Assembly (NCBI GenBank): GCA_029263315.1
Contig: JAJCXR010000048.1
Location: forward strand, 265,768-329,767
Direction of reading: 5' to 3'
Origin: Acidobacteriota bacterium
Lineage (GTDB): Bacteria; Acidobacteriota; Thermoanaerobaculia; Multivoradales; J023
Length of the DNA stretch: 64,000 bases
Shown: piece after piece, positions 1,563 through 62,607 of the stretch
Position numbering within the stretch: position 1 is the stretch's first letter
Layout of the letters: each line of letters begins with the position of its first letter
Position numbers and translations under genes: made by a program
Notes under the pieces: model-generated
Seen by the model: only the letters and a program-made list of their open reading frames with translations
Told to the model about the DNA's origin: nothing
The model's database searches: none

Positions 1563-3245
<1,683 letters not shown>

Positions 3246-3369
3246 CGAGAATCCTTCTCGTTTCTTCTGTGATTGGGTTGTGGAGTGGGCAGCGTCCGCC
3301 GCCGGTCTGATCATACCCGAGGCGGCAGCGAGCGAGAAGCGGACAGCGCAGGCCATCCCGGTCAGTCGT

Positions 3370-34128: not shown

Positions 34129-34872
34129 TCAGAAGCCAATCCGCCGCATGACGAAGCGCGGCAACAGGCGGATCACCCACATGATGAGACGCCACATGAA
34201 CGGTGTGTAGACCAAGGGCTCACCTCGGTCCATGGCCTTCAGAACGCGTCGCGCCACGGCATCGGGCTCACCGGCAAAGGGCGGTGGTTTCAGACCAGCC
34301 GTCATACCGGTCTTGATAAAACCCGGTTTGACCGCAACCGTTACCAGCCCTTGACTGCGAAATTTGTGATCTAGGGATTCCAGATAGTGGGCCAGCCCCG
34401 CCTTGCTGGCGCCGTAGATCGCCACCGGCTTGCGGCCACGATCCCCGGCCACCGAGCCGAACACGCAGAGAATACCGCCGCCGACGGTCAGAAGACGCTC
34501 CCGCGCCTCTTCGCAGAACAACACCGTGTTGGTGAAATTGACGGTCAACAGCTTCTTGGCCCGCTGTCGGTCTTGCTCGAGCTCATCTTGGGGTGCAAAA
34601 AGCCCCGCCGTCACCACCACGGCGTCGATCTTGCCGAGGGTGGCCGTCGCCGCGTCCAAGGCGGGTGAAAACGTGCTGTCGTCCAGCAAGTCACAGGGCG
34701 CCTGGCCAACAAATCCTACCTTCTGTTGACCGCGCACCTCCAGATCTCGGGCACTGCGTTCCAGATCCTCGGCATCACGGCCCAAAAGGAAGAGACGATC
34801 CCCCCGCTCCGCCATCAGGCGAGCCAGCGCCCGCCCCATACCCTTGGTAGCACCTAGAAATACGATATTCAT
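34129..34872 (-). CDS. short-chain dehydrogenase/reductase (SDR)
   Basis: 'VFLGATKGMGRALA' cofactor motif, 'YGASKAGL' YxxxK. Confidence 0.8.
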   Translation of the reverse strand: MNIVFLGATKGMGRALARLMAERGDRLFLLGRDAEDLERSARDLEVRGQQKVGFVGQAPCDLLDDSTFSPALDAATATLGKIDAVVVTAGLFAPQDELEQDRQRAKKLLTVNFTNTVLFCEEARERLLTVGGGILCVFGSVAGDRGRKPVAIYGASKAGLAHYLESLDHKFRSQGLVTVAVKPGFIKTGMTAGLKPPPFAGEPDAVARRVLKAMDRGEPLVYTPFMWRLIMWVIRLLPRFVMRRIGF

Positions 34873-34918: not shown

Positions 34919-35176
34919 CGGGAATACGCTGACCTATCGAGCAGCAAGCGAAACGCCGCGGGCGGATGCATCGGCGCTCGAATACCAGCTATTTTTGAAA
35001 AGGTGTACTTAGTACACCTTTCCGGAAATACGGTGACGTATTGAGAGCACCGAGGCGCCGCGTCCGCAAGGCTTGCGAGCGAGGCATAGTGGGGCTCTGT
35101 TGCAGCGAGCGTAACGCCGCGGACGCGGATGCTTCGGCGCTCGAATACCAGCGTATTTTTGAAAAGGTGTACTTAG
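34919..35176. repeat. composite direct repeat: two ~75-bp imperfect copies (...gcgctcgaataccagc(g)tatttttgaaaaggtgtacttag) plus duplicated 'gaatacgctgacctatcgag'-like sub-repeat
   Basis: copy 1 ~34939-35011, copy 2 ~35107-35176; sub-repeats 34919-34941 and 35022-35045; lies between Hpt gene stop and SDR gene start. Confidence 0.8.
34998..35020. promoter_or_regulatory. perfect 23-bp palindrome aaaggtgtact-t-agtacaccttt (candidate operator/dimer-binding site or bidirectional terminator core)
   Basis: 11-bp perfect arms around a single central nt; flanked by ttttt upstream; only the left half-site recurs at 35163-35176. Confidence 0.6.
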
Positions 35177-35610
35177 CTGCCAGGCGCCGGGTCGATACCT
35201 ACCAGATGGGCGATCAGCTCGTCCGCCGCCTGCTGCACCTCGCCGAGGAGACGCCGACAGCCCGCCGCGTCACCGTCGGCGGCCCGTGTTTGCAAGGCGT
35301 TGCATTTGCGGTACAAGGCCCTGCCTCCGAGGGCACCGGCGGACCCCGCCAAACCATGGGCCCAGCGCCCCACCGCAGCGTAATCCCTAGCCTCCAGGGC
35401 CGACCCCATGGACGCTAACGACACCGGAACCTGACGCCGGAAAGCGACCAGCACCTCCTCGAGCACCCCCCTCGACCCCTCGGCGGAGCGTCCGCCACCG
35501 TCGAGCTGACGGATCTGGGCAAGGCGCTCCGCGATCGAGGTCCGGTCCTCGTAGTCCCTAGCCCCAGGCATGGAGATTTTCCCGCTGCTCACCATCCGCA
35601 AACTCCGCAT
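35173..35610 (-). CDS. Hpt (histidine phosphotransfer) domain protein
   Basis: 'AHGLAGSAGALGGRAL' = Hpt 'HxxKGSxxxxGA' motif; start uncertain. Confidence 0.55.
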   Translation of the reverse strand: MRSLRMVSSGKISMPGARDYEDRTSIAERLAQIRQLDGGGRSAEGSRGVLEEVLVAFRRQVPVSLASMGSALEARDYAAVGRWAHGLAGSAGALGGRALYRKCNALQTRAADGDAAGCRRLLGEVQQAADELIAHLVGIDPAPGS

Positions 35611-35736: not shown

Positions 35737-36396
35737 ATGATGCCACCGAACATCCAAGTTCTGATTGTCGACGACCATTTCATCGTGCGCAAAGGCATTG
35801 AGGCGATGCTGACTGGTTTTGAAGACATCGTGGTGATCGGGGAGGCAAACAACGGTCTCGACGCCCTGCAACTCAGCCAAAGCCTCGAGCCGGACATCAT
35901 CTTGATGGACCTTCTGATGCCCAAGATGGACGGTGTTGAAGCTACCCGCCGCATCCTGGAATCGAAGCCCACATGCCGCATCCTGATCCTCAGCGGCTAC
36001 GCGACCGAGCGGGAAACCCTGGAAGCCGTCCGCGCCGGGGCCTCTGGCTTCCTTTCCAAGGACTGCACCGCCGAAGCCCTTGCCGAAGCCATCCACAAGC
36101 TCCACCGTGGTGAGCTGTCCCTACCCGCCGATATGCTGCCACGGCTCATGCGACACCTTGAAAAGCCGGTCGCAACCAGCCAAGACCTGACCCCACGGGA
36201 GCAAGACGTCCTCAACCTGCTGGCCCAAGGGCTGGATGATAGAGAAATGGCACGCCAGCTCGGCGTTTCCAAGGTGACGGTGCGCTCCCACATCAGCAAT
36301 CTGCTCGCCAAGCTTCAGCTCAAGAACCGTGTCGAGGCAGCCCTCTACGCCCTGCGCCGTAACCCTGCGCTGCAACAGGACGACATAGAGCCCTAG
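35737..36396 (+). CDS. NarL/FixJ-family response regulator (REC + LuxR-type HTH)
   Basis: REC 'VLIVDDH...ILMDLLMPKMDG', HTH 'LTPREQDVLNLLAQGLDDREMARQLGVSKVTVRSHISNLLAKL'. Confidence 0.85.
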   Translation: MMPPNIQVLIVDDHFIVRKGIEAMLTGFEDIVVIGEANNGLDALQLSQSLEPDIILMDLLMPKMDGVEATRRILESKPTCRILILSGYATERETLEAVRAGASGFLSKDCTAEALAEAIHKLHRGELSLPADMLPRLMRHLEKPVATSQDLTPREQDVLNLLAQGLDDREMARQLGVSKVTVRSHISNLLAKLQLKNRVEAALYALRRNPALQQDDIEP

Positions 36397-36913: not shown

Positions 36914-38152
36914 TCAGAGGGTAGAGATCAGCTCTTCGAGCCGTCGCCGCAAGGCGCCGATGCTGGGCAGACGATCGTCCTTGGCCTTGGCCATCGCCTG
37001 GCGTACCAAATCTTGTAACGCCCCTCGCAGGACTTGCGACATCTCATCCACCGTCACACGACGCTGCGCCGCCAGACCTTGGCGGGTCGACTCGTCCAGC
37101 CCCTGCCAGCGCTCGCCGAGGCCGACCGTCTCACCCCGCAAGATGGCCTGCACCACCCTCATCAGGCTGAAATTTTCGACCTCGATGGGTAAAACACCGG
37201 CACAGAGCTCGAACAGCAGGATGCCCAGCGCATAGACGTCACTCTGGCCATCGACCGGTCCAAGCTCGCCGTCGATGGATTCGGGAGACACATAGAGGGC
37301 CATCTCCAGGCCTCCACGGGTCAGCACGGCGGATTCGGTGAGGGCATTGGGCAAGACGCTGACGATCCCCGTGTCAGTGATTTTGGGAAGCGGCGATCCG
37401 CCGTTTGTCGACACCAGAATATTGGAGGGTTTGAGCCCCAAGTGGAAATACCCGAGACGGTGGGCATGCTCTAAACCGCGACAAACGTCCAGCACCAAGC
37501 CCAGGCGGTGCTTCAAGGACAGACGGTGTTGTCGGCAATAGCGCATCAGGGTGGGTCCCTCCACCCATTCCGAGCCGTAATAGGCCCTACCATCGGCCTC
37601 GACTCCGCCGTCGATCAAGGTTGCCAGGTTGGGATGCGAAAGTTCCCGCAGCTCGGTCATCGCCTGTGCAAACTGTACCTGCGCGTCCTCTTCCGTCAAA
37701 ACACCGCGCAGCACCTTGAGGGCAGCGATTCTCGGCCTCGAGCCCTCTTCATGGCCCTCAGGGCCGTGGAATTCAGCTCGATAGACCTTGCCGACGCCCC
37801 CCGTACCGACAACTTCCAGCAGATTGAAGAGCCCCAGGGAACGGCGAGCCTTGATCTTGACCCGCCAATCCTCGGGGGCTGGGCCGCGCCGACGACGCGT
37901 CGGGAGGTGCTCGAGATGGGCCCTCAACGAGGCTTGGGAGTCCGACGCCAGCTTGACCGCAGGGCCCTCGAGGAAAACGTCCATGACGTCGCTCTTGCCC
38001 TCGTCCAGACAATTGCGAAGCTCCTTGGCGAGGCTCGGCTCGTCGACTTCGAGGCTTGCCAGGAGGACCTCCCTCGACTGCGTATCACTGGTCAGCGCCT
38101 GTTCCAGCAAGGCGTGGAAGCGGCGCTCGACATCCAGATCCGAGCTTTTCAT
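36914..38152 (-). CDS. Hanks-type Ser/Thr protein kinase homolog with degenerate catalytic motifs (predicted pseudokinase or atypical kinase)
   Basis: G-loop VGTGGVGKVYRA, VAIK Lys 'AALKVL', but HRDLKPxN -> 'HLGLKPSN' (catalytic Asp replaced by Gly) and DFG -> 'DTG'; APE -> 'SPE'. Confidence 0.75.
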   Translation of the reverse strand: MKSSDLDVERRFHALLEQALTSDTQSREVLLASLEVDEPSLAKELRNCLDEGKSDVMDVFLEGPAVKLASDSQASLRAHLEHLPTRRRRGPAPEDWRVKIKARRSLGLFNLLEVVGTGGVGKVYRAEFHGPEGHEEGSRPRIAALKVLRGVLTEEDAQVQFAQAMTELRELSHPNLATLIDGGVEADGRAYYGSEWVEGPTLMRYCRQHRLSLKHRLGLVLDVCRGLEHAHRLGYFHLGLKPSNILVSTNGGSPLPKITDTGIVSVLPNALTESAVLTRGGLEMALYVSPESIDGELGPVDGQSDVYALGILLFELCAGVLPIEVENFSLMRVVQAILRGETVGLGERWQGLDESTRQGLAAQRRVTVDEMSQVLRGALQDLVRQAMAKAKDDRLPSIGALRRRLEELISTL

Positions 38153-38159
38153 CTGAGAT

Positions 38160-38744
38160 TCACGTTCCCAGCTTGCGATAAAGCCAACGTTTTGCGATGC
38201 GCCAGTCCCGCGCCAGGGTGGCGAGGGAAATACCCAAGACCTCGGCCGCCTCTTCGTTGCTCAAGCCACCGAAGTAGCGGAGCTCCACCAGTTGGGCCTG
38301 TCGGGGACTGATTTGACTCAGTAGCTCTAGGGCTTCGTGCACCGCCAGGACGTTAGTATTGTGCTCCGCCTGGGGTTCTGGAGCCTCTTCCAATGGTACC
38401 TGTTGACGGGGTCCGATGCGTTTGCCTGCCTGCTGCCGCCGGGCGTGGTCCACTAAAATGCGTCGCATGGCCTGGGCGGCCACGGCAAAAAAGTGGGAAC
38501 GATCTGAGACATCGGGTGTGCCGCCACCCCAAAGACGGAGATAAGCTTCGTGCACTAAGGCGGTCGTCTGCAAGGTGTGGCCCGCCCGCTCCCTGCGCAA
38601 ATAGCTGGCCGCCAAGACCCTCAGCTCTCGATACACCAGGGGCAGTAGATCTTCCGGTGCTCCGCTGTCGCCCTCACGCCAGCTCTTGAGAAGCTGGGTG
38701 ATCTCGCTAGTGCGATCCTCGGTCGAATCTTGCCGCGCTTCCAT
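38160..38744 (-). CDS. ECF (sigma-70 family) RNA polymerase sigma factor
   Basis: region 2 'LVHEAYLRLW', region 4 'LSNEEAAEVLGISLATLARDWRIAKRWL'. Confidence 0.8.
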   Translation of the reverse strand: MEARQDSTEDRTSEITQLLKSWREGDSGAPEDLLPLVYRELRVLAASYLRRERAGHTLQTTALVHEAYLRLWGGGTPDVSDRSHFFAVAAQAMRRILVDHARRQQAGKRIGPRQQVPLEEAPEPQAEHNTNVLAVHEALELLSQISPRQAQLVELRYFGGLSNEEAAEVLGISLATLARDWRIAKRWLYRKLGT

Positions 38745-38777
38745 GCCCCCATCGTAACAGGCTGAGCCGCCGGACCA

Positions 38778-39686
38778 TCAGAGGGTTGCTACCAAAGGAA
38801 GACGCTCACGGCTCGACACCACAACCCCTCCGGGCTTCTCTATGGTGATGGCGAAAAGATAGGGCTCATCGATCTCCAGTTGGGTCTGGATGGGCACAAC
38901 GACAGAACCGTCTGTCCCCACATCGAAGACGCCGCCGTCGACGGGATAGCGCTCGTCCTGGCGACGATCGAAAATCCACAACTGGTATTGCCACTCGCTG
39001 GGGTCATTGACCGGCAACCCATTGAACAGCATGTAGCCTTCTTGTAGCTCGATGCTCCATACCAGATCACCGGATACGCCTTGCGCGGCGGGATCTTCCG
39101 TCGCGGTCCAAGACGCTTGCACGATCTGAGGGGCTTGTCTGAGCAACTGCTGCCGACGAATTGTTGGGGCGTTGCCCGTCTGCGGAGGCTCACCAACGGG
39201 TCCGCTAGCGATTTCCGTCGGTGTGCCCGCCAGCTGCTGGGCGATGCGCGGCGACCAACCCCAGATCGCCAGCAAGGAGGCGGCGACCGCCACGCTCCAG
39301 CCGGTCCAACGGCTTCGCTTTGAGATCGGGGGCGGGACGACGGGCTGCGTCGGTGCACCGTCGGACTCTGGAAAGGGAATCACCTCGGCGCCAGCCCCTT
39401 GGCTAGGCTTTGAAGCTTCTGTTTGAGCGGCTTGTCGCCCTGCAAAGAAACCGCTGGCCTGGTCTTCCACCCGCTGCCGCAACGACTCCGGGAGAGGCGC
39501 CTCCGCAGCCCGGGCGGCATGACTGTAGGCCACGTCGATGGCCGCGGCAGCCCATTCGAATCGACGGTCCGTCGGGATACCCTGGGCTCGCCGTTGATTT
39601 TGAAGCTCTTGCCATCGCGCCTCATCGAGCCCTTCCGTGGCGTAGTCGACCAGCAGCTGATCATGGGCTTCCCGCGATTCCTTCAC
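38778..39686 (-). CDS. anti-sigma factor, RskA-like (N-terminal anti-sigma helix, TM, periplasmic RskA-type C-terminal domain)
   Basis: single TM 'WSVAVAASLLAIWGW'; C-terminal 'YQLWIFDRRQ...' RskA-like; 4-nt overlap with upstream ECF sigma gene. Confidence 0.6.
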   Translation of the reverse strand: MKESREAHDQLLVDYATEGLDEARWQELQNQRRAQGIPTDRRFEWAAAAIDVAYSHAARAAEAPLPESLRQRVEDQASGFFAGRQAAQTEASKPSQGAGAEVIPFPESDGAPTQPVVPPPISKRSRWTGWSVAVAASLLAIWGWSPRIAQQLAGTPTEIASGPVGEPPQTGNAPTIRRQQLLRQAPQIVQASWTATEDPAAQGVSGDLVWSIELQEGYMLFNGLPVNDPSEWQYQLWIFDRRQDERYPVDGGVFDVGTDGSVVVPIQTQLEIDEPYLFAITIEKPGGVVVSSRERLPLVATL

Positions 39687-40363
39687 CTCCCCACCCCCTT
39701 CGTCGTAGGGGTTGGATTCTCGAGAATGTCCCGAACCCTCTGGAGACCGCGGCGAATGTATGTCTTGACGGTACCCAAGGGGATACCGGTGTGATTGGAA
39801 ATTTGGCCGTGCGACATGCCTTGGTAGGTGGAGAGCAGGATGACCCGTTTCTCTTGCGGCGCCAAGGTGGCCAAGGCACGCGCCGCCAAGCTGGCATCGG
39901 CGCTGGCCTCGATCTGTCTCTGTTGGGGATCGGACATCAGCTCCAGGGCCGGGTCCAAGGCATCGGAGGTCGGTCGACGCTGGCGATACCGGTGCCGGTC
40001 AATGAGTCTCCGGCGGGCGATCATGGCAACAAACGTGGTCTCTGATGCCTTGCTGCCGTCGAAACGGTCGGCACTCTTCCAGAGATCGATGTAGATCTCC
40101 TGGACACCGTCTTCGGCGTCGCCGGAAGACGGTGAATGGCGGCGGGCCAAGGACCAGATCAGGGCACCGTAACGTTCGATGCAAGCCTGGATCGCATCGG
40201 CATCACCGGCCGCAATACGAGGCAGCAGATCTTCGCTCAAGTCGGGGGTCCTTAGAAAGTCATTTGCAGGGCCCCGTGAGTCTAACCGAAATGCTACCGC
40301 CTGTCGTTGCGAGGAGATTGCAGTCGGTGTCGAAAACAACCATCTTTGCCTTGCATTTTGCAT
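39683..40363 (-). CDS. ECF RNA polymerase sigma factor (second copy, cognate of downstream anti-sigma)
   Basis: region 2 'DGVQEIYIDLWKSADRFD', region 4 'MSHGQISNHTGIPLGTVKTYIRRGLQRVRDIL'. Confidence 0.75.
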   Translation of the reverse strand: MQNARQRWLFSTPTAISSQRQAVAFRLDSRGPANDFLRTPDLSEDLLPRIAAGDADAIQACIERYGALIWSLARRHSPSSGDAEDGVQEIYIDLWKSADRFDGSKASETTFVAMIARRRLIDRHRYRQRRPTSDALDPALELMSDPQQRQIEASADASLAARALATLAPQEKRVILLSTYQGMSHGQISNHTGIPLGTVKTYIRRGLQRVRDILENPTPTTKGVGR

Positions 40364-40450: not shown

Positions 40451-41488
40451 TCAGCTGGCCCGCCGCACCAGTCGATAGTGGTTGACCATCCATTCCTGTC
40501 CCTCGCGGAATCCGAAGAGCTCGGCACAAGAAAGAAAGAAAACCCGCCAATAGACCCACCAGCGCCGCTGCTCGTCGGCCCCGTAGACGTCATTCAGAAT
40601 CGGCAAGAGGTGCTCCCGCTGTCGATCCATGTTGCTCAACCAGGCCAAGGAGGTCTTCTGGTAATGCTGGCCATCGACATCCCACTGGGCTTCGATCACC
40701 ATGGCACCGTCGAAACGCCCCAAGAGATCGGCGGAGGGCATCAATCCCCCGGTGAAGAAATACCGCGCCATCCAGTCGCCCGCATCACGGGCCTCAAATC
40801 GGTAGGCCAGTCGGCGATGGCAGAAGATATGGACAAAGAGCTTGCCTTCGGGGTGCAGCCAGGAAGCGATGTTCTGTAGCAACTGACGGTAGTCGCGCAG
40901 ATGCTCGAACATCTCGACGGAGACCACACGATCGAAGCGCCGTTCCAAGGTCAAATGGCGCACATCGACGGTGCGCACCTCGAGATTACGAAAGCCACGC
41001 TGCTCTGCCTGGTCGTCGATGTATTGCTTCTGCGTCGCCGAGTTGGAAATCGCCAGGATCTTAGAGTTGGGGAAATGCTCCGCCATGAAGAGGCTCAGCG
41101 ATCCCCAGCCGCAACCGAGCTCGAGGATGTCCTGGCCGTCGGCCAGCTGAGCCCGTCGGACGGTCAAATGCAGCATCGCCTCCTCCGCCCGGTCGAGGTC
41201 ATGGCAATCCGGCTCGAAGAGGGCCGAGCTGTACTTCAGGCGCTTGCCCAGCACCCGGTGGAAAAACTCCGTCGGCACTTCGTAGTGCTGCGCATTCGCC
41301 TCTTGCGTATGGACCGCCAAGGGGCCTGAAGCCAAATCATCAGCGAAGGCCTGAAGCTTGCTCTCCAGGGCTTGTGGGCTTCCCGGGTCCTCGCTGCGCA
41401 AGCGCTCCGCCAGGAGGCGGCGGATGCCGAATCGGAGGATCGGGTCCGGCAGGAGATCCTTGCTCAACAGAGTATCGATCCAGCTCAT
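40451..41488 (-). CDS. cfa: cyclopropane-fatty-acyl-phospholipid synthase family methyltransferase
   Basis: 'ILELGCGWGSLSLFMAE' SAM motif; CMAS-family length; ATG 41488 overlaps upstream stop (ATGA). Confidence 0.8.
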   Translation of the reverse strand: MSWIDTLLSKDLLPDPILRFGIRRLLAERLRSEDPGSPQALESKLQAFADDLASGPLAVHTQEANAQHYEVPTEFFHRVLGKRLKYSSALFEPDCHDLDRAEEAMLHLTVRRAQLADGQDILELGCGWGSLSLFMAEHFPNSKILAISNSATQKQYIDDQAEQRGFRNLEVRTVDVRHLTLERRFDRVVSVEMFEHLRDYRQLLQNIASWLHPEGKLFVHIFCHRRLAYRFEARDAGDWMARYFFTGGLMPSADLLGRFDGAMVIEAQWDVDGQHYQKTSLAWLSNMDRQREHLLPILNDVYGADEQRRWWVYWRVFFLSCAELFGFREGQEWMVNHYRLVRRAS

Positions 41489-41829
41489 GGGCGGTGCGTC
41501 TCCGGTTTCTCGAAGAGGCCGGTCCATGGCGTCGACGGCGGCAGCCTCTTCAAGGCGATCAGAAAATAAGCGGCGATAGCAAAATTGCCCAAGACCAGCA
41601 GCAGTACCAGCCAGATACCGCGCCGCAGCCAGTTGGGTTCGCGATAGGCGATCCAAATGAAGACGGTGAGGAAGGCGAAATAGGCGTCGAAGAGGGTTGC
41701 CTTGCCCCAAGGATCGGCCCAGATCTCCGACGCCGCCTGCAGCACACTGCGCTCCATGCTGGCGGTGACCGTCACCCACAACATGCCGAGCAGGACGAAG
41801 CTGAAGAACAAATAGAGCAACGCTTTCAT
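41485..41829 (-). CDS. small integral membrane protein (DUF1475-like), ~114 aa
   Basis: 3 TM helices 'LLYLFFSFVLLGMLWV', 'AYFAFLTVFIWIAY', 'IWLVLLLVLGNFAIAAYFLIAL'; ATGA overlaps on both sides. Confidence 0.6.
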   Translation of the reverse strand: MKALLYLFFSFVLLGMLWVTVTASMERSVLQAASEIWADPWGKATLFDAYFAFLTVFIWIAYREPNWLRRGIWLVLLLVLGNFAIAAYFLIALKRLPPSTPWTGLFEKPETHRP

Positions 41830-42359
41830 GACCGTGCCTCCTGCCATCGAGGTGGGGTGACGATGATCACGGCCAGCGGACAGGCCACTGCCCAGACCAA
41901 GGCCAAAACAAGAAGGGATAGCGCCGGAGTCAAACCGAAGGACGCGGCCCCCATGCCGACGCCCCCGGAATAGGCCAAGGGGCCTCCGACCATGCCCAAC
42001 AAGGCCGCCAAGGGCAGGCGCCGGTGTAGAAAATCGAGCGGCCCCAACAACATCAAACCGAAGTGCACCCACAGGGCGATGATCCATGGGGGACACAGCC
42101 AAACCGCCGGAGCACCATCAAAGGTCAGAACTTGAAAAAGGCTTTGCAGAGAATCCACCGCCGTGCCCATGAGGGCCAAGACGGCCAAATGCCAGACCCG
42201 GTGCCGAGGCCATGCCTGCACCAGATGGGCCACCACCAACAACGCTACCACCACCGGGCCGAGCCAGAAGCGGCCCGACGCTGCCCCCCACACGGCCAAG
42301 AACCAGGCCCCTTGCAGAGCACCAAAGGTCAGCCCCGATACCAATGCGGACCTTTTCAC
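41826..42359 (-). CDS. hypothetical polytopic membrane protein (DUF2878-like), ~177 aa, GTG start
   Basis: 4-5 TM helices; GTG overlaps stop of upstream methyltransferase gene (GTGA). Confidence 0.5.
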   Translation of the reverse strand: MKRSALVSGLTFGALQGAWFLAVWGAASGRFWLGPVVVALLVVAHLVQAWPRHRVWHLAVLALMGTAVDSLQSLFQVLTFDGAPAVWLCPPWIIALWVHFGLMLLGPLDFLHRRLPLAALLGMVGGPLAYSGGVGMGAASFGLTPALSLLVLALVWAVACPLAVIIVTPPRWQEARS

Positions 42360-43690
42360 CAGCCACCTTCGAGACCAGCCGGCTCGCTCAAACGTCCTAG
42401 GGGAGCGGGCTGCCGATACCCCGGCGCCGCCAGCAAGATCTGGGCGTTGCTGATCGCCCGTTCGCGGAATCCGCCCTCGCAGTAGCAGAGATAGAAGTCC
42501 CACATGCGGACGAAGCGCTCGGAGAATCCCAAACGCCGAACCTCCTCGAGGCGGGACATGAAGCGCTGTCGCCAGTGCTGCAGAGTGGTCGCATAGTGCA
42601 GCCCGATATCCTCCAGGTGAATCGGAGTCAGGTGGCTGACCTGCTTCAAGGAGCCCAGCATCGCCCCCAGGGAAGGGATGCCGCTGCCGGGGAAGATATA
42701 GCGCTGGATGAAGTCGACGGAGCGCTTGGCTTCGTCGTAGTAGCGATCATCGATGGTAATGACCTGCAGCAGCATCAAGCCGTGGGGGGCCAACAGGCCC
42801 TGGCAGGCCGCGAAGTAGGTATCGAGATGGTCTAGCCCCACCGCCTCGATCATCTCGACGGAGACCAGTTTGTTGTATTGGCCTCGCAGGTCCCGATAAT
42901 CCTGCTGCATGATTTCCACCCGCTGCTCGAGACCCGCCTCGACCACCCGGCGACGGGCGTAATCCGCCTGGGCCGGTGAGATCGTGGTGGTGGTGACCCG
43001 ACAGCCGTAGCGGTGCGCAGCGTGCATGGCCAGGCCACCCCAACCGGTACCGATCTCCAGCAGATGATCCTTCGGTGACAAATCGAGTTTGCGACAGATA
43101 CGCTCCAGCTTGGCCTCCGAGGCTGCGTCCAGGTCCATGTCTGCCTGCTCGTAGACGGCGCAGGAGTACATCATCCGGCGATCTAGAAAGAGCTCGAAGA
43201 ATTCGTTGCTCAAGTCGTAGTGGGCCTCGATATTGCGACGGCTGCCGCGACGGTTGTTGCGGCGCAGGCGGTGGAAGGCCTTGTTCAACGGCGCGCTCAG
43301 CTTGGCCCAGCCGCCTTCGAGACTTTGCATCAAGGCGCGGTGGCGGACCAGCAGGCGGACCAGGCCGGTGAGATCGTCACAGTCCCAGTAGCCTGCCATA
43401 TAGGCCTCGCCCGCCCCGACACTTCCGCCGCTCAGCGCCTTGGTGTAGAAGCGGAGGTCGCGGACCCGCAAAGTAACAACGAGCTCGGCGCTATTGGCCA
43501 CCTTCCGCCGACTGCCGAAGACCTTTTCCTCCCCCGGGGCGCCGTCGTAGCTTTCTTGCAAACGCAGCACATCACCGCTCAGCTGCGCCAGCTTTCCGAG
43601 CAATAGTCGACGGGCAAAGAAGGCGACAGCACCGGAAGCCAGCAGCCCACGACGCTCCAAATCAGCTAAATCCGCCACGCTTTCAGTCAC
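42356..43690 (-). CDS. cyclopropane-fatty-acyl-phospholipid synthase-like SAM methyltransferase (second paralog)
   Basis: 'LLEIGTGWGGLAMHAAHRYGCRV' SAM motif; 'YDLSNEFFELFLD' CMAS N-region; GTG 43690 overlaps DUF1365 stop (track ORF to 43936). Confidence 0.8.
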   Translation of the reverse strand: MTESVADLADLERRGLLASGAVAFFARRLLLGKLAQLSGDVLRLQESYDGAPGEEKVFGSRRKVANSAELVVTLRVRDLRFYTKALSGGSVGAGEAYMAGYWDCDDLTGLVRLLVRHRALMQSLEGGWAKLSAPLNKAFHRLRRNNRRGSRRNIEAHYDLSNEFFELFLDRRMMYSCAVYEQADMDLDAASEAKLERICRKLDLSPKDHLLEIGTGWGGLAMHAAHRYGCRVTTTTISPAQADYARRRVVEAGLEQRVEIMQQDYRDLRGQYNKLVSVEMIEAVGLDHLDTYFAACQGLLAPHGLMLLQVITIDDRYYDEAKRSVDFIQRYIFPGSGIPSLGAMLGSLKQVSHLTPIHLEDIGLHYATTLQHWRQRFMSRLEEVRRLGFSERFVRMWDFYLCYCEGGFRERAISNAQILLAAPGYRQPAPLGRLSEPAGLEGGW

Positions 43691-44580
43691 GATGCTTCTC
43701 CTGACGGGGGCACGGTGGACACCTCCCTCGAATGCTTGGGATGGGAATGGAAAGGCGTCTTCTTGAGCCACAGGCGCAAGGCTTGGTAGTAGATGCCGAA
43801 GGCGATGCGCCCGCTCATCCAGGGATGGCGGCACAGAGCCCTGGCCAGCGCAGGACCTTGGATGGGCCGCCGTTCCAAGGTCAAGGTGGCGTCGAAGATC
43901 CGATCTCCTCGCCGCAGATTCTGCATCTGAACCCACAGACGCCGGCCAGGGGTACCAAAACGCCAGAGATAGTCCAGCTGCATGGGCATGAACGGCGAGA
44001 CATGAAACTCCTTGGGCAATCGGAAGGAGGTTTCATTCACAGCTCCCTGCCCATCTGCCGACGCCTGATGGTCCACCGAAAGAACGTAGCTATGGCGCTC
44101 GCCCCACGGCGTGTTGGTGATCTCGGCGACGATGGCCTGCACCGCGTTCTCTGCCGGAGGCGCCATCGATGGATGCCGTACACCGCCCGCCGCAGGGGCC
44201 GGATCGTCCCGGAAGCAGTAATAGAAGGTCACCGGATTGATCTGGTATCCCCAATAGCGCAGGTGGGTGAGCATGCGGATAGGTCCCTCGGGCCGTCGTC
44301 CCACGCTACTCTCCACCCGCCGTCGCACACTCTCGTCCAACGGTATTTCGACGGGGCCCAGGAAATCCTGACGTCGAAACCAAGCCGGGGCCGGCCCCCT
44401 GGACGACCACAACCATCGACCATCGAAGAGGTGTGGGAGCTCGTCGAGATCCAGGTACATCATGAACAGGGGGTAGGAGAAGTGGTGCGGCCGAGGCCGG
44501 TGGCGACGATGACGCACCCGTCCCTCGTAGATGGCGCTATGGAGGTCGCCGCCGCCCGGCCGTGTCGGTTGAGCGGTCAC
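43687..44580 (-). CDS. DUF1365 family protein
   Basis: hallmark N-terminus 'SAIYEGRVRHRRHRPRPHHFSYPLFMMYLDLDEL'. Confidence 0.8.
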   Translation of the reverse strand: MTAQPTRPGGGDLHSAIYEGRVRHRRHRPRPHHFSYPLFMMYLDLDELPHLFDGRWLWSSRGPAPAWFRRQDFLGPVEIPLDESVRRRVESSVGRRPEGPIRMLTHLRYWGYQINPVTFYYCFRDDPAPAAGGVRHPSMAPPAENAVQAIVAEITNTPWGERHSYVLSVDHQASADGQGAVNETSFRLPKEFHVSPFMPMQLDYLWRFGTPGRRLWVQMQNLRRGDRIFDATLTLERRPIQGPALARALCRHPWMSGRIAFGIYYQALRLWLKKTPFHSHPKHSREVSTVPPSGEAS

Positions 44581-45818
44581 CAGGCCACCCCGAGTTGCCG
44601 CGCCACCCGCCTCGCCGACACCACCCCATCCTCATGGAAACCAAAACCCCAATAGGCGCCGCAGAAGTGGGTTCGGCGCTGGCCGCTGATCTCTTGCCAG
44701 CGCTTTTGCGCGGCGATCCCCGCCGCCGTGAAGAGGGGATGATCGAAGGTGGTGCGGTGCAGGACGGTCTCGGGATCGATCTCGTCACTGCGGTTGAGGG
44801 TGACGCAGTAGTGTTGATCGGTGGTCAGCTGTTGCAGACGGTTCATGTAGTAGGTCAGCTGCACGCCGCCGGAGCTGTCCGATTGCTGGTGGTAATTCCA
44901 GCTGGCCCAAGCCCTGCGCCGGCGCGGCAGGAAACGCCGGTCGGTGTGCAAGACGGCCTCGTTGCTCTGGTAGGGAATGGCCTCCAAAATCTGCTTCTCT
45001 ACTTCGCTCAGGTCGCTCACCAAGGCCAGGGTCCGCTGGCTGTGGGTCGCCATCACCACCTGGTCGAAGGTCTCCACGTCGCCGCCCCGGGGACGGATCT
45101 CCACCTTCTCTGCGAAGCGTCGAACGGATTGCACCGGCGTCGCCAGGCGGAGATTGTCGCCGAGCAACTTTTCGATGGCCTGCACATAGCGCCGGGAGCT
45201 GCCCGCCACCGCCAGCCATTGCGGGCGGTCGTTGACCGTCAACATGCCGTGATTGGAGAGGAAAGCCACCAAGGTACGGGCCGGATATTCCATCAACCGA
45301 CGCGGGTCCGTCGACCAAATAGCCGCCACCATGGGAACCAAATAGTTGTCGACGAAGGGCTTGCTGAAACCCTGCTGGTCGACGAACTGCCCCATGGTCA
45401 GCCCCCCATCGGCCTGCAACAGGGAGGGCGCCACGCGGTGGAAACGCAAGATACCCAGCAACATGCGGTAGAAGTCAGGACGCACCAGGTTGCGACGCTG
45501 GGCAAAGAGCTGATTGAGATTGCCGCCGTTGTATTCGAAGCCGGTGGCATCATTGCGCACGCTGAAGCTCATGTCGCTGGCCTGGCTGGCGATGCCAAGC
45601 TCGCTCAGCAGGCGTAGGAAATGGGGATAGGTCCGACGATTGAAGACGATGAATCCCATGTCGACGGCCAACCGACCTGTTGCGCTCTCCACATCGACGG
45701 TATAGGTATGTCCGCCGGCGATGGCCGAGGCCTCGAAGAGCTGCACGTCGTGCTGGCGCGATAGGAGGTAGGCGGCCGTCAGGCCGGAGATGCCACCACC
45801 GATGACGGCGATCTTCAT
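44577..45818 (-). CDS. NAD(P)/FAD-dependent oxidoreductase (amine-oxidase-like) of the CFA-like cluster
   Basis: 'KIAVIGGGISGLTAAYLL' dinucleotide motif; ATGA overlap with DUF1365 gene. Confidence 0.8.
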   Translation of the reverse strand: MKIAVIGGGISGLTAAYLLSRQHDVQLFEASAIAGGHTYTVDVESATGRLAVDMGFIVFNRRTYPHFLRLLSELGIASQASDMSFSVRNDATGFEYNGGNLNQLFAQRRNLVRPDFYRMLLGILRFHRVAPSLLQADGGLTMGQFVDQQGFSKPFVDNYLVPMVAAIWSTDPRRLMEYPARTLVAFLSNHGMLTVNDRPQWLAVAGSSRRYVQAIEKLLGDNLRLATPVQSVRRFAEKVEIRPRGGDVETFDQVVMATHSQRTLALVSDLSEVEKQILEAIPYQSNEAVLHTDRRFLPRRRRAWASWNYHQQSDSSGGVQLTYYMNRLQQLTTDQHYCVTLNRSDEIDPETVLHRTTFDHPLFTAAGIAAQKRWQEISGQRRTHFCGAYWGFGFHEDGVVSARRVARQLGVAW

Positions 45819-49037: not shown

Positions 49038-51194
49038 ATGAACCCCAGCTCCGGGCGGCCATTGCCGCTCCATTGGCCCATTGCCTCGATCTTGTCTTGC
49101 CTGATCGGCTTGACCTGGTTCGTCACCCCGCTGTCGGCCAACCCGACGGCCGACCCCACCCTCGAAAGCCGTGACTTCGACGCTCGCATCGCCCAGACCC
49201 AAAACCTGGAGGTGGCACCGACGCCTATCCAGCGGCAGCATCTACGGGCCTTTCGGCAACACCAAGCGGACCTACTGGTCAGCTTCGATGCCGTCACCGG
49301 CGTCACCCGCAGCCTCTACAACCCCCTCGGCTACTTGAGCGACAGCCAATCCGGCGACGCCCTGACCTCGAGCCAAGCCTTCCTGCAGCAGCATCTTCCG
49401 CTGCTCGGTTTGAGCAGTGACGATATCGCCGACTTCGAGATCACCGACGATGTGGTGTCGACCCCCACCGGGGCCCGGCGCATCTACCTACGCCAAACCC
49501 TTGGCGGCTTGCCGGTCTTCAACGGCCAACTGCATTTCAACTTCAATCGCGACGGACGGCTGATCAGCCTCAACAACGCCTTCTTCCCGAACCTCGCCCA
49601 GGCTGTGCCGTCCGCCGTCCCCACCTTGGCTGCCCCCCAGGCCCTCGGCTTGGCGGCGCAGCATCTGGGAATCGCCCCGGAAAGCGCGCCGACGATGCTG
49701 CAAGCCGCCGTCGGCAACCAGCAACGAACCTTGCTGCGCTGGTCGGAAATATCCTACGAGGACATCGAAGCGCAGCTCATGTGGCTGCCGGTGCAGAAGG
49801 GTCAAGTCGAGCTGGTGTGGAATTTCCAACTCTTCACCACCGATCGCCTGCACATGTACGACTTCAACGTCGACGCCCACTCCGGCCAGCTGTGGAGCCG
49901 CTTCGATTGGATCGACGACGCCAGCTATCGCGTTTTCCAACAGCCGGTGGAGAGCCCGAATCATTCCACCATGCCGCCTCCCGCCGATGGTCGTATGCTG
50001 ATCGTCAACCCTGAGAACGCCACGGCGTCGCCCTTGGGCTGGCATGACAACGGCTCCACCAGCTTCACCACCATGCAAGGCAACAACGTGCACGCCTTCG
50101 ACGATCTCGACGGCAACAATCTGCCCCCGGCCGTCGAGCCGGACTGCGGCGCCGGGCTGCTGTGTGATTTCGACAGCCCGATCGATTTCTCCACCGACGA
50201 CCCGACCGCCTATACCAGCGCTTCGGTGGCTAACCTCTTCTACTGGGCCAATACCATCCACGATATCCAGTACCAATATGGCTTCGACGAGGCGGCCGGC
50301 AACTTTCAGACCAACAACTTCGCCAATGGTGGCTCCGGCAACGACGACGTCACCGCCTTCACCCAGAAGTCCGGCTCCCCGTGCCCCAACAACGCCTTCT
50401 TCGGCACCCCGCCGGACGGTTCGTCGCCCAATATGTTCATGTGCCTGTGGACCCCCTCGACCCCGCGACGGGACTTCTCTTTCGACAACGGAGTGGTCAT
50501 CCACGAGTACGGCCACGGCATCTCCAATCGCCTGGTGGGTGGCCCCAGCAACGTCAGTTGCCTGGGCAACAATCAGCAGCCGGGGGAAGGTCTCAGCGAT
50601 TGGTGGTCCTTGGCCTACACCGGTGAGGTGGGAGATGCCGGTACCGATGTTCGGGGCTCCGGCACCTACATCTTGGGGCAGCCCCTGGGCGGTCCCGGCG
50701 TGCGCACCCAGCCCTACAGCACCGACCCGGCGGTCAATAACCACACCTACGCCAGCATCAACGGCATGAGCATTCCCCATGGTGTCGGCGAGGTCTGGGC
50801 ACAGGCCGCTTGGGAAGCCTACTGGGCCCTTGTCGATGTGCATGGATTCGACGCCGACCTCTACGATGTCGACGGTGGCGCCGGCAACCAGCGCATGATG
50901 CTCTACGTCAACGAAGGTTTGAAAAACACCGCTTGCTCGCCCACCTTCACCGATGTGCGGGACGGCATCATCCAAGCCGCCACCGACAACTACGGTGGGG
51001 TCGATGTTTGTCGTCTGTGGGAGGCCTTCGCCGCCTTCGGCCTGGGCACCGATGCTGTCAGCGGTGGGTCCAGCAGCACCTCACCGAGCAATGGTTTTGC
51101 CATTCCGATGGCCTGTGAGGGAGCCGGTGGCGCCATCTTCGACGACGGCTTCGAGAGCGGTAGCGTCGACGCCTGGTCGACGACGTTCCCCTGA
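49038..51194 (+). CDS. secreted M36 (fungalysin-family) zinc metalloprotease
   Basis: signal peptide; 'HEYGHGISNRL' HExxH + fungalysin-type 'GEGLSDWW'; propeptide-like N-region. Confidence 0.85.
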   Translation: MNPSSGRPLPLHWPIASILSCLIGLTWFVTPLSANPTADPTLESRDFDARIAQTQNLEVAPTPIQRQHLRAFRQHQADLLVSFDAVTGVTRSLYNPLGYLSDSQSGDALTSSQAFLQQHLPLLGLSSDDIADFEITDDVVSTPTGARRIYLRQTLGGLPVFNGQLHFNFNRDGRLISLNNAFFPNLAQAVPSAVPTLAAPQALGLAAQHLGIAPESAPTMLQAAVGNQQRTLLRWSEISYEDIEAQLMWLPVQKGQVELVWNFQLFTTDRLHMYDFNVDAHSGQLWSRFDWIDDASYRVFQQPVESPNHSTMPPPADGRMLIVNPENATASPLGWHDNGSTSFTTMQGNNVHAFDDLDGNNLPPAVEPDCGAGLLCDFDSPIDFSTDDPTAYTSASVANLFYWANTIHDIQYQYGFDEAAGNFQTNNFANGGSGNDDVTAFTQKSGSPCPNNAFFGTPPDGSSPNMFMCLWTPSTPRRDFSFDNGVVIHEYGHGISNRLVGGPSNVSCLGNNQQPGEGLSDWWSLAYTGEVGDAGTDVRGSGTYILGQPLGGPGVRTQPYSTDPAVNNHTYASINGMSIPHGVGEVWAQAAWEAYWALVDVHGFDADLYDVDGGAGNQRMMLYVNEGLKNTACSPTFTDVRDGIIQAATDNYGGVDVCRLWEAFAAFGLGTDAVSGGSSSTSPSNGFAIPMACEGAGGAIFDDGFESGSVDAWSTTFP

Positions 51195-56167: not shown

Positions 56168-58753
56168 TCAGGGGCTGGTCGCCGACCAACCGCCGGCGGT
56201 GCCGCCCTCGAAACCATCGTAGAACAGACCCGCGAAGCAACTGGCGGATACCTGAGCGTGGGTGATCTCGATATCGTCCAGGTACCAACCTTCCAAGGTC
56301 AACCCACCGTCGGTGGAGAAGATCCAACGCAGCTGAACCGTCTCCCCGGCGTAGGCGCTGAGATCGGCCGTAAACTCGTTGAAGCTCAGGTTGGTGCCGG
56401 TGAAGCTCGGCGAGCCGGTGGCGAAGCCGCAGGCATCGGAGCTCTGGATGAAGCTGCCCGGGTATCCCTGGTCGAGATCGATGCGGGTCCACTTGCCGCC
56501 TCCGTCCATGGTGATCTCCACCACTCCACCGTCGTAGCCGCTCTCGATCTCATAGGCGGTCCAGAAGCTCAGCCGGGGGCTCTGGGACGGCGTCAGCTCG
56601 ATCGGTGGCGTGCCCACCGAAATGCATTGCCCGTCGGCATAGGTGGAGAAGTAGCTGCGACTTCCGCTGTGCACGCGGGCATCGGAGGGTTCCCAGCCGA
56701 TGTGCTTGGAGGTCGGATCGGTGAAGGTGGCGCCGGTGGAGTAGATCACCGAGGGGTCCGTCAGCTCCGCCCCAGAGTTCCAAGCTCCATCGGAAATGGG
56801 GCCGGTGGGCGTGCCCACCAAGACCTGCAGATTGCTGTCTTCCGTGCCGCTGCCCAAATCCGTGGCGCGCACCGCATAGTAGTAATCCTCGGTGCGATCC
56901 ACCGTGCTGTCGGTGAAGGTCGTCGCGACGAGATCGGCGGCGATTCGATTGGCCTCGGAGGGCACAAAACCCGGGCCGTCTCCGCGGTAGACGTTGTAGG
57001 TCACCGAGCCACCGCAGTTGGCCGTGGCGGCGGTCCACGAAAGCTCCAGCGCACAGGTCGGCTCACCCAAATTGGTGATCGTATCGAGACCCGCGAAGAT
57101 CGGCGGCGCGTTGCAGGTTCCCGTCGTCGTCGCCGAGGCACAGGCAGACGGTGCCGATTCACAAAGGCCGGAATCGTCGGATTGGCTGACCTCATAGGCG
57201 TAGGCCACTCCGCCGGAGACGCTATCGCTGAAGGTCGTGCCCACCAGATCGCTGGCCACCAGCTGGCGCTGACCGCCGGGGCAAGCTCCGAACGAACGGT
57301 AGACGTTGAAGGTGCCGCCGGGCTCCCCCGCCGCCCAGCTCAGATCGATCTGGTTGTCTCCCGCCGCCATCGCCGCCAGGGCAGAAGGCTCGGCCGGATT
57401 GGTGCACAGGTTGGGCCACAGAACAAAGAGCCCCCCTTGGGTGCTACTGACCAGGACGACGCCACTTTCGAAGAAGGGATAGACGCTCCATGCACCTGAA
57501 GTCCCCGAAGCATCGCTGCCCGGCACCACATCGAAGAATGCGACCTCCTGCATATTGCCGTTGGCGATATCGGAAATATCGAAAATGCGCAGCCCGGCTC
57601 GATAGTTGGCCTGATAGGTGTAGTTGCCGCGCACATACTGATTGTGATCGCTGGCGGTGCTGGACGAGGTGAAAGGCACCATGGTGGGGGCCTCGAGATC
57701 GGAGACATCCCAGATGTAGGTCTTGGTGTTGTGCCCGAAGCTGAGCTCGTCGACCTCGTCGTCCAACAGGTGATAGACGTGATCCTCGGTCAGCCAACCT
57801 TGATGGGTGTAGCCGGAGCCCGAATAGCTATTGCGCGACAGCTGGAGCGGGTTGTTCTTGTCCGTCACATCGACGATGGTCAGAGTGTCCGTATTGGAGC
57901 CGAAGCAGATCTCATCCCCCTGATGCTCGACGTCGGGCCCTTGGTAGATCACGCATTGGGCGTCGTGGGTATAGCCATCGGCGCTGAAACAACCTGCGTC
58001 GACCGGCTGCACCGGATCCTGGATATCGATCATATGCAGGCCACCGTTGCAGGTGGCGGCGCCCACCGCATAGGCGAAACCGCTCTCCTCGTTGATGACG
58101 ATGTTGTGGGCGCTGCCGAAACCGTCGAAATGGGCCGTGTTGGAGAACACCACCGGCGGCGACGCCACATTGCGCAGATTCTTCAAGTCGAAGATCTGCA
58201 TACCGTGACCACCGGCCTCACTGACGATGAAGGCATGGTCGGCATACACCTTGATATCGCGCCAGCTGGAGTTGCTGGTGTGGGTGGGCAAGGTTCCGAT
58301 GAGGACGCCGTCGTCCGGGACTGACAGGTCGACAAAAGCCGTGCCGTTGTTCAACCCCATGAGCGCATACTCGGTTCCCGTCACGGGATCGGTCCAGCCC
58401 CAAAGATCGTTGCCGGCGCTGGCCCCGAGCTGGGCCGGCGAAAAGACCTCCAAGAGATCGACATTCAGGCAAGGGAACCCGTTGGCCATACCATTTTCAC
58501 AAGCCACGTGGTGTTCCGGAGAGGCGGGCAGATCCGTGTCTTCGGGCAGCGTCTCACCGTCCAAATGCGCATGGGTTGCGGGCCTTTGCGCGGGCGTTTG
58601 CGCCATCGAGACGGAGACCGGAGCCAAAAGCAGGAGCACGGCTGCACCGAGGATGGCAGACCGACTGTCGGCGGTCCAAGAAGTTAGAAGACCTGACGGC
58701 AAGAGACCTGAGGGAAAGAGACCTGGCGGAGAAATACCTAGGAGAAGCTTCAT
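56168..58753 (-). CDS. secreted multidomain protein: LVIVD-repeat beta-propeller (choice-of-anchor-B-like) + two FN3-like domains + C-terminal beta-sandwich
   Basis: signal peptide; LVIVD-like 'MQIFDL','LHMIDIQDP','LTIVDVTDKNNP','LRIFDISD'; FN3-like 'YNVYRGDG...YYYAVRATD'; ggagg SD before ATG 58753. Confidence 0.6.
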   Translation of the reverse strand: MKLLLGISPPGLFPSGLLPSGLLTSWTADSRSAILGAAVLLLLAPVSVSMAQTPAQRPATHAHLDGETLPEDTDLPASPEHHVACENGMANGFPCLNVDLLEVFSPAQLGASAGNDLWGWTDPVTGTEYALMGLNNGTAFVDLSVPDDGVLIGTLPTHTSNSSWRDIKVYADHAFIVSEAGGHGMQIFDLKNLRNVASPPVVFSNTAHFDGFGSAHNIVINEESGFAYAVGAATCNGGLHMIDIQDPVQPVDAGCFSADGYTHDAQCVIYQGPDVEHQGDEICFGSNTDTLTIVDVTDKNNPLQLSRNSYSGSGYTHQGWLTEDHVYHLLDDEVDELSFGHNTKTYIWDVSDLEAPTMVPFTSSSTASDHNQYVRGNYTYQANYRAGLRIFDISDIANGNMQEVAFFDVVPGSDASGTSGAWSVYPFFESGVVLVSSTQGGLFVLWPNLCTNPAEPSALAAMAAGDNQIDLSWAAGEPGGTFNVYRSFGACPGGQRQLVASDLVGTTFSDSVSGGVAYAYEVSQSDDSGLCESAPSACASATTTGTCNAPPIFAGLDTITNLGEPTCALELSWTAATANCGGSVTYNVYRGDGPGFVPSEANRIAADLVATTFTDSTVDRTEDYYYAVRATDLGSGTEDSNLQVLVGTPTGPISDGAWNSGAELTDPSVIYSTGATFTDPTSKHIGWEPSDARVHSGSRSYFSTYADGQCISVGTPPIELTPSQSPRLSFWTAYEIESGYDGGVVEITMDGGGKWTRIDLDQGYPGSFIQSSDACGFATGSPSFTGTNLSFNEFTADLSAYAGETVQLRWIFSTDGGLTLEGWYLDDIEITHAQVSASCFAGLFYDGFEGGTAGGWSATSP

Positions 58754-58874
58754 GATGACCTCCGATGCTGACCGTTGAATTTTCAGCGACGGTTCAGTAT
58801 AAGGTCTGCTGTCGAAAAGCGCATCCTCCGGCAAGACGGGATGACCATCGAAGCCCGAGCCTCAACATCGACTA

Positions 58875-60622: not shown

Positions 60623-60623
<1 letters not shown>
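58875..60623 (-). CDS. hybrid sensor histidine kinase / response regulator (TM sensor, HisKA, HATPase_c, REC)
   Basis: H-box 'MSHELRTP', N/G boxes 'NLIGNAIKF','GGSGLGLAI'; REC 'VLVVEDN...LVLLDIQLP'; aaggaga SD before ATG 60623 overlapping upstream stop. Confidence 0.85.

Positions 60624-62607
<1,984 letters not shown>

Follow-up and report, generated by a model that had tools for sequence, protein, structure and literature searches.

An ECF43-like sigma factor gene paired with a Hanks-type pseudokinase gene: a candidate non-catalytic sigma factor module in an Acidobacteriota genome

Introduction

Extracytoplasmic function (ECF) sigma factors that are associated with Ser/Thr kinases, and their activation by phosphorylation, are well established (PMC7826278, PMC13147305 and PMC8999054). 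In the ECF43 sigma factors, a [S/Q]xTA motif replaces the acidic DAED motif of region sigma2.2, and phosphorylation of its Thr by the cognate kinase allows the sigma factor to bind RNA polymerase (PMC13147305 and PMC8999054). PknS, the partner of EcfK in Xanthomonas citri, and PknT, the partner of EcfP in Vibrio parahaemolyticus, are active, autophosphorylating receptor kinases (PMC13147305; PMC8999054). Specifically, PknS, whose structure is deposited as 9eed, has been shown to phosphorylate the ECF43 sigma factor EcfK directly, and its N-terminal helical region, the function of which is unknown, is invisible in the crystal (PMC13147305). ECF43 sigma factors have become the textbook case of sigma factor activation by direct Ser/Thr phosphorylation, being inert until a neighbouring receptor kinase acts on the sigma2.2 Thr. 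Here we describe a locus in a 64,000-nucleotide stretch of DNA from an Acidobacteriota bacterium (contig JAJCXR010000048.1; hereafter the window, at its full length) in which an ECF43-like sigma factor, sigB, keeps this Thr and has as its conserved neighbour a Hanks-type kinase homolog that lacks both the catalytic machinery and a sensor. The first-pass annotation of this DNA had set the locus beside the Ser/Thr kinase-associated ECF sigma factors as an established class, a status that the literature bears out (PMC7826278, PMC13147305 and PMC8999054).

A bacterial pseudokinase is a kinase-fold protein without at least one of the beta3 Lys, the HRD Asp and the DFG Asp (PMC12599244). Seven bacterial families have been described, namely ActPs1-3, GLW, CP1, DYD and DLHK (O'Boyle et al. 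2025; bSTK atlas preprint). Sigma factors, ECF or otherwise, are mentioned neither in the review of bacterial pseudokinases (PMC12599244) nor in the bSTK atlas preprint, and a full-text literature search combining 'ECF sigma factor' with 'pseudokinase' found a single paper, on an unrelated subject. Bacterial pseudokinases have thus far been catalogued with almost no known partner or function. The protein described here has an obvious candidate ligand in sigB; it is small and soluble, it should be tractable in E. coli like EcfP/PknT, and it offers a system in which the role of bacterial "dead" kinases can be studied.

Results

The locus consists of four minus-strand genes encoding, in the direction of transcription, a canonical ECF sigma factor (sigA), an RskA-like anti-sigma factor, sigB and the Hanks-type kinase homolog of 412 aa. 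The coordinates and the spacing given in the first-pass annotation match exactly, with a 4-nt overlap between sigA and the anti-sigma gene, a gap of 33 nt from the latter to sigB and a gap of 7 nt from sigB to the kinase homolog (Table 1). We lean, with modest confidence, towards reading the third and fourth genes as an ECF43-type sigma factor module in which the cognate Hanks kinase would have become a soluble, non-catalytic and probably nucleotide-binding partner of sigB.

Annotated at first pass as a second ECF sigma factor, sigB passes the curated cutoffs of both PF07638 (190.7 bits, 3.1e-56; cutoff 21.1) and TIGR02999 (223.8 bits; cutoff 126.15). Its sigma2.2 stretch reads HTLQTTALVHEAY and contains QTTA without acidic residues, and T61 within this motif aligns with the position that is phosphorylated in EcfP and EcfK. 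QTTA is invariant within the clade of loci described below, and T61 is invariant in 18 sigma factors, down to 61% identity. The called sigB start (38724-38744, minus; MEARQDSTEDR...) makes the protein 7 residues longer than its clade orthologs, which open GTG-MTEER, and the true start may lie slightly downstream of the called one.

The 412-aa protein matches the Pfam model Pkinase at 7e-24, and its best PDB match in HMMER is PknS (9eed, 1.1e-31). In line with this, a Foldseek search with its AlphaFold2 (AF2) model, which has a predicted local distance difference test score (pLDDT) of 86, again returned 9eed as the best match, with a TM-score of 0.90 on the target. Because PknS is the best match in both sequence and fold, the protein is a relative of the family of ECF43 cognate kinases, and it descends from partner kinases of the PknS/PknT type. 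The kinase motifs were read by HMMER alignment to PknS and StkP, and then by translation of the exact coordinates. In the alignment, FHLGLKPSN of the query lies over IHRDLKPSN of PknS and VHRDLKPQN of StkP, and KITDTGI lies over the DFG segment. Alignment and translation both uphold what had been read from the DNA at first pass, namely that the Gly-loop and the VAIK Lys are retained while HRD has become HLG and DFG has become DTG.

A search of 5.8 billion proteins places the protein in a clade of eight members of 405-421 aa that matched at 50-100% identity, the other members at 50-78%. In an exhaustive search with a hidden Markov model against 1.84 billion 50%-identity representatives, the clade is a single cluster at 711 bits, and the next matches reach at most 390 bits. 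HLGLKPSN and D[T/L/I]G occur in all eight members. Among about 269 homologs, HLG is confined to these eight, the rest having HRD or being second domains of tandem kinase proteins. Since the eight members were assembled independently and all have HLG, as against none of about 260 other homologs, HLG is neither a sequencing error nor a chance event. With its HRD Asp replaced by Gly in 8/8 members, the clade consists of pseudokinases by the operational definition given above. The clade is rare: it comprises eight 90%-identity clusters, all from uncultured organisms, and a scan of GTDB genomes with the clade profile returned relatives of at most 38% identity among the matches listed. Hints of a link of these organisms to Acidobacteriota are indirect: the sigma factor relative nearest to sigB that has a name is 67% identical, and L173 belongs to an assembly named after this phylum.

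We also observed ten tandem kinase-like proteins among the homologs (P0075, P0080, P0104, P0112, P0113, P0115, P0254, P0290, P0294 and P0307), each combining one HRD domain with one HGN, HGG, HRN, HCA, HCS or HRG domain in a JAK-like kinase/pseudokinase arrangement, and one lone HRN protein, P0119 (333 aa).

The conservation of the eight clade members was compared with that of 56 aligned active relatives. Five positions of the catalytic core, each with 91-100% conservation in the active relatives, are all replaced in the clade. Specifically, the alphaC Glu (position 164; E in 56/56 active relatives) is variable in the clade (A/D/G/R) and therefore unconstrained; the HRD Arg (position 238; R in 54/56) is Leu in 8/8 members; the HRD Asp (position 239; D in 56/56) is Gly in 8/8; the DFG Phe (F in 56/56) is I, L or T; and the Thr of the P+1-loop 'GT' (T in 51/56) is Met in 7/8. 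The P+1-loop Thr hydrogen-bonds the catalytic Asp, as T201 does D166 in PKA. Retained in the clade are the Gly-loop, K146, K241 and N244 of the catalytic loop, the DFG Asp D260 and the activation-loop T278. To see whether an acidic residue compensates for the lost HRD Asp, we screened the residues that are fixed in the clade but seldom occur in active relatives: no such acid is present in the catalytic loop or adjoining DxG, and the clade-specific acids, D294, D353 and E9, sit elsewhere. The first-pass reading that the catalytic base is missing, from which a pseudokinase or a non-canonical mechanism was predicted, is supported and strengthened, with the catalytic Asp and four further core positions lost clade-wide. 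P0009 and P0010, the active relatives with the most similar sequences, were considered as pointers to the immediate ancestor and set aside, being neither linked to a sigma factor nor equipped with the N-terminal domain described below.

The relatives of sigB were surveyed in 80 metagenomic loci with sigma factors at 49-60% identity, from a scan of JGI metagenomes with the sigma profile that yielded relatives at no more than 60% identity. In these loci, HRD occurs in all downstream partners in which the catalytic loop is present. The partners are mostly 800-1100 aa long, and a transmembrane segment is found in 55 of the 58 long canonical ones. In the relatives this segment directly follows the kinase domain, the point at which the 412-aa protein ends. 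Its sole hydrophobic stretch is the buried alphaF helix, and neither the AF2 model nor the hydrophobicity profile reveals a transmembrane, TPR or sensor region. Because the protein ends at the kinase domain, unlike the canonical partners, the sensor role that had been suggested for it at first pass is unlikely in the usual extracytoplasmic sense; the scaffold role suggested alongside it appears plausible.

Ahead of its kinase-like domain, the 412-aa protein has a predicted three-helix domain (the N-domain), which is also present in 34 of the 35 sigma-adjacent kinase partners at those loci where the downstream sequence extends for at least 1.5 kb. Between the two domains lies a predicted disordered linker with the motif RRGPAPEDW[QR]VK, which is invariant in the clade and absent from the active relatives; it could be a short binding motif. 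The outgroup sigma factors nearest to sigB, at 69-76% identity, have different neighbours. At L172:5001-7131, the gene of a sigma factor that shares 69% identity with sigB has 20 nt downstream of it a gene for a protein of 513 aa without a kinase domain, which combines the N-domain (matched by hhalign at 94%, E 1e-7) with an AKQQG/S low-complexity repeat, a single transmembrane segment and TPR repeats. No kinase gene occurs within 5 kb downstream of the sigma factors at L170 (75% identical) and L171 (71%). The phospho-acceptor Thr is present in the sigma factors of L170, L171 and L172. The HLG clade and the L172 protein both retain the N-domain but differ in what they have lost: in the HLG clade the transmembrane and TPR part is gone and a dead kinase domain remains, whereas in the L172 protein the kinase domain is gone and the transmembrane and TPR part remains. 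As the N-domain is the element common to both sigma factor neighbours, we propose that it is a sigma-docking module, and the N-domain of ECF43-partner kinases in general is probably such an element.

The pseudokinase is the most divergent protein of its neighbourhood. Between clade genomes it is 50-67% identical, compared with 85-94% for sigB, 86% for sigA, 64% for the anti-sigma factor, 88-92% for the SDR and 81-84% for the M24 peptidase. Nonsynonymous divergence (dN, Nei-Gojobori) is 0.13-0.44 for the pseudokinase, 0.05-0.10 for sigB and 0.06-0.09 for the neighbouring SDR, which makes the dN of the pseudokinase 4-6x that of the other two in the same genome pairs. Its ratio to synonymous divergence (dN/dS) is about 0.10-0.34, values that are approximate because dS is near saturation (0.8-2.5). 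In canonical pairs, sigma factor identity approximates kinase-domain identity (ratio about 1), and the contrast in rate is suggestive rather than rigorous because there are 8 clean pairs, with sigma factors 40-67% identical. About 130 alignment columns are invariant in the clade, the clade-specific motif set among them, and all eight open reading frames (ORFs) are intact. The pseudokinase is under relaxed yet real purifying selection, and the gene is functional rather than decaying.

The pairing of the pseudokinase gene with sigB is a property of the clade. In the window and in L001, L003, L005, L006 and L007, a PF07638 sigma factor gene lies directly ahead of the HLG gene (spacing -4 to +20 nt), and the arrangement is partially visible in L002 and L004. 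By contrast, the pair of sigA and the RskA-like gene adjoins it only in the window and, across a 64-nt spacer, in L001; in L003, L005 and L006 the sigB/pseudokinase pair stands alone behind its own upstream intergenic region, and the RskA-like ortholog of the L003 contig is located elsewhere. Because all clade loci have the sigB/pseudokinase pair and these two alone have the sigA/RskA-like pair beside it, the four genes are two separable modules rather than one conserved unit, a correction to the first-pass reading. In particular, the RskA-like anti-sigma factor upstream of sigB, whose gene is not syntenic with sigB in L003, L005 and L006, belongs to sigA. Downstream of the pseudokinase gene, an SDR gene and an M24 peptidase gene follow in L001, L003 and L005, either directly or past one inserted gene.

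The first two genes are an independent, canonical pair of a sigma factor and an RskA-like anti-sigma factor, placed upstream of sigB in this lineage by happenstance, and they may be co-transcribed with the last two. SigA contains Sigma70_r2 (1.3e-17) and Sigma70_r4_2 (1.9e-13) by Pfam, has the acidic DAED motif in sigma2.2, and shares 86% identity with its L001 ortholog. The general ECF model TIGR02937 (97 bits, cutoff 42.9) is the only one it passes; with SigK-type models it reaches 104-108 bits, where 222-226 would be required (PRK09646, 103.7 against 226). The 302-aa protein itself matches nothing in Pfam and NCBIfam, even at E<=10 and with PF10099 (RskA) included. PF10099 is present in most of its homologs at 40-69% identity, several of which are named anti-sigma-K factor RskA. 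The label given at first pass therefore survives by homology only, as RskA-like, without a model match of the protein. Its central segment is weakly hydrophobic (best KD19 1.23 at residue 131).

Directly upstream of sigA, at 40451-45818 of the window (minus), lie genes for two CMAS-type cyclopropane-fatty-acid synthases, DUF1475, DUF2878, DUF1365 and a flavin amine oxidase, and L001 too has DUF2878 and DUF1475 ahead of sigA. SigA probably targets this set, which we take to resemble the core regulon conserved for singlet-oxygen sigmaE-ChrR.

The remaining features of the window are listed at the end of Table 1. Its M36 metallopeptidase best fits the type IX secretion system (T9SS)-dependent subtype, at a score under the cutoff of that model.

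Table 1. Positions of the four genes, of motifs and domains within them, and of other genes in the window
Feature	Position	Strand	Remarks
sigA	39683..40363	minus	226 aa; canonical ECF sigma factor; module 1
RskA-like anti-sigma factor	38778..39686	minus	302 aa; module 1
sigB	38160..38744	minus	194 aa; ECF43-like sigma factor; module 2
Hanks-type pseudokinase	36914..38152	minus	412 aa; module 2
sigma2.2 motif QTTA of sigB	38559..38570	minus	residues 59-62; direct translation
N-terminal three-helix domain	38000..38143	minus	residues 4-51; AF2 helices 4-21, 24-37, 39-51; pLDDT ~90
Linker motif RRGPAPEDW[QR]VK	37853..37891	minus	predicted disordered linker between N-domain and kinase domain; pLDDT <50
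Kinase-like domain	36917..37840	minus	residues 105-412; AF2 secondary structure; pLDDT >90
Gly-loop GTGGVGKV	37784-37810	minus	retained; invariant in clade
beta3 (VAIK) Lys K146, in AALKV	37715..37717	minus	invariant in clade; 55/56 active relatives
Catalytic loop HLGLKPSN	37421..37444	minus	HRD Arg to Leu, catalytic Asp to Gly; Lys and Asn retained
DTG for DFG	37367..37375	minus	metal-binding Asp retained, Phe lost
LuxR-type response regulator	35737-36396	plus	between pseudokinase and SDR; window only
Hpt-domain protein	35173-35610	minus	between pseudokinase and SDR; window only
SDR	34129-34872		
EttA	1563-3356		959 bits
M36 metallopeptidase	49038-51194		
Choice-of-anchor B family protein	56168-58834		
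Hybrid histidine kinase	58875-60656		

Discussion

SigB has kept the Thr that is phosphorylated in its characterised relatives, and its neighbour has lost the catalytic machinery; therefore, either the phosphorylation model fails for this sublineage, which would use binding or phosphorylation in trans, or a Hanks kinase works without its catalytic base. Under the reading that we prefer, the pseudokinase would bind sigB non-catalytically at about 1:1, docking via its N-domain. Either the ATP-binding pseudo-active site or the activation-loop Thr278 might serve as a conformational switch. The outcome would be control over the availability of sigB, or its presentation, for phosphorylation at T61, to an active Hanks kinase whose gene lies elsewhere. 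A more specific proposal is that an ECF sigma factor has here acquired a Hanks-fold pseudokinase as its own non-catalytic regulator, which would bind it through the N-domain and gate it by a conformational switch driven by nucleotide or phosphorylation, in an MLKL-like arrangement; we regard it as tentative and, on balance, doubtful. If it were true, then together with the kinase-less partner at L172 and the partner-less L170 and L171, partner binding instead of phosphorylation by a cognate kinase would control a whole ECF43 sublineage, and the N-domain would be a previously unrecognised sigma-binding module. The comparison also singles out the N-terminal helical domain of ECF43-partner kinases, which has so far been uncharacterised, as the part that probably docks the sigma factor.

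Several points weigh against a purely non-catalytic partner. T61 of sigB is invariant and no acidic motif stands in for it, so phosphorylation would still be needed, and the adjacent gene is its simplest supplier; an active kinase that acts on T61 in trans is hypothetical. Additionally, the strict retention of the Gly-loop, K146, K241, N244 and D260 is also what would be expected of a weak but real phosphotransferase. Anti-sigma-like sequestration is an awkward mechanism because an unphosphorylated ECF43 sigma factor is already inactive on the EcfP model. Finally, what suggests a sigma-binding role for the N-domain is co-occurrence alone.

These points lead to the strongest alternative, that the HLG protein is still the kinase of sigB, carrying out a slow, atypical, base-independent phosphotransfer to T61 of a tightly bound, stoichiometric substrate, and that the level of its expression, not a membrane sensor, determines how active it is. 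Kinases mutated at the catalytic Asp usually keep 0.1-1% of their activity, and some pseudokinases without this Asp, JAK2 JH2 (HGN) and HER3 (HRN) among them, are weakly active. In the clade, the ATP/Mg ligands and the Lys that contacts the gamma-phosphate are invariant across proteins that have diverged by 50%; sigB keeps its phospho-acceptor Thr and has no acidic residues there; the spacing of the two genes suggests translational coupling; and the 64-kb window encodes no other Hanks kinase. However, five core positions have been lost together, including the P+1-loop Thr that positions the base, no acid in the catalytic loop or next to DxG compensates, and a related sigma factor lineage (L172) has a partner without any kinase domain at all. 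The protein also evolves 4-6x faster than sigB, a contrast with the ratio of about 1 in canonical pairs. On this evidence we consider a residual kinase rather unlikely, if clearly worth weighing.

The position of sigA ahead of sigB invites another explanation, a two-sigma cascade in which sigA, once freed from its RskA-like anti-sigma factor, would transcribe sigB and the pseudokinase gene as the output stage of an envelope or oxidative-stress response. The modules lie on the same strand, separated by only 33 nt in the window and 64 nt in L001. Between them there is neither a convincing terminator nor a convincing sigma70-type promoter: promoter-like sites number 2, compared with 0.8 +/- 0.8 in shuffled sequences, and terminator-like sites 4, compared with 2.9 +/- 1.8, and no scanned site separates the modules. 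On the other hand, the sigB/pseudokinase pair has its own intergenic region and no such companions in L003, L005 and L006, with the RskA-like gene elsewhere in the L003 contig, and an alignment of the regions upstream of sigB contains no conserved promoter motif. A cascade, possible in this lineage though not conserved, is accordingly an unlikely account of this locus.

Retention of the nucleotide-binding residues alongside loss of the phosphotransfer base would also fit a kinase fold that has been repurposed for other chemistry, such as AMPylation or another nucleotide transfer, on sigB or on another substrate; SelO, SidJ and SdjA are named as precedents in the review of bacterial pseudokinases (PMC12599244). 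The protein nevertheless superposes on PknS (TM-score 0.90) and has neither insertions nor rearranged motifs like those of SelO or SidJ; nothing speaks positively for such a reaction, and we hold it to be very improbable. That the pseudokinase gene is a decaying, non-functional relic of a cognate kinase, as its status as the fastest-evolving gene of the neighbourhood might suggest (50-67% identity against 81-94% for its neighbours), is effectively refuted by conservation, given a full-length intact ORF in 8 lineages, about 130 invariant columns, dN/dS of 0.10-0.34, a high-confidence AF2 fold, and conserved synteny and tight spacing with sigB.

How the two modules relate to known systems can be set out in turn. 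The first two genes resemble SigK-RskA pairs (ECF19/ECF18-type) in combining an ECF sigma factor with acidic sigma2.2 and an overlapping downstream anti-sigma gene whose homologs carry PF10099; they differ in that sigA falls far under the SigK-specific NCBIfam cutoffs and the anti-sigma factor fails the Pfam RskA model. For the pseudokinase, eukaryotes offer analogies. JAK2 JH2 (HGN), HER3 (HRN), STRADalpha and MLKL are pseudokinases that bind ATP and either have no catalytic Asp or function as switches. Like the clade, they have lost the HRD Asp and kept nucleotide-binding residues, and MLKL in addition shares the succession of helical bundle, linker and pseudokinase domain. The likeness is one of analogy only: beyond the kinase fold no specific homology was detected, and the partner here is a bacterial sigma factor.

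With the described bacterial pseudokinase families, the clade has in common a Hanks fold whose degenerate catalytic motifs are conserved family-wide. Most of these families also lose the DFG Asp, whereas the HLG clade loses only the HRD Asp of the triad, and it has HLG, not GLW, at the catalytic motif that names the GLW family. By comparison with their published descriptions, the clade fits none of the seven.

The closest comparison is with EcfP-PknT and EcfK-PknS. The partner in the window differs from PknT and PknS in the loss of five core residues (catalytic Asp, HRD Arg, alphaC Glu, DFG Phe and P+1 Thr) and of the transmembrane and periplasmic (TPR) sensor part. What the window module shares with both is a PF07638/TIGR02999 sigma factor with [S/Q]xTA in place of DAED (PMC13147305 and PMC8999054), a kinase-family gene directly downstream, and a partner protein built from an N-terminal helical domain and a Hanks fold.

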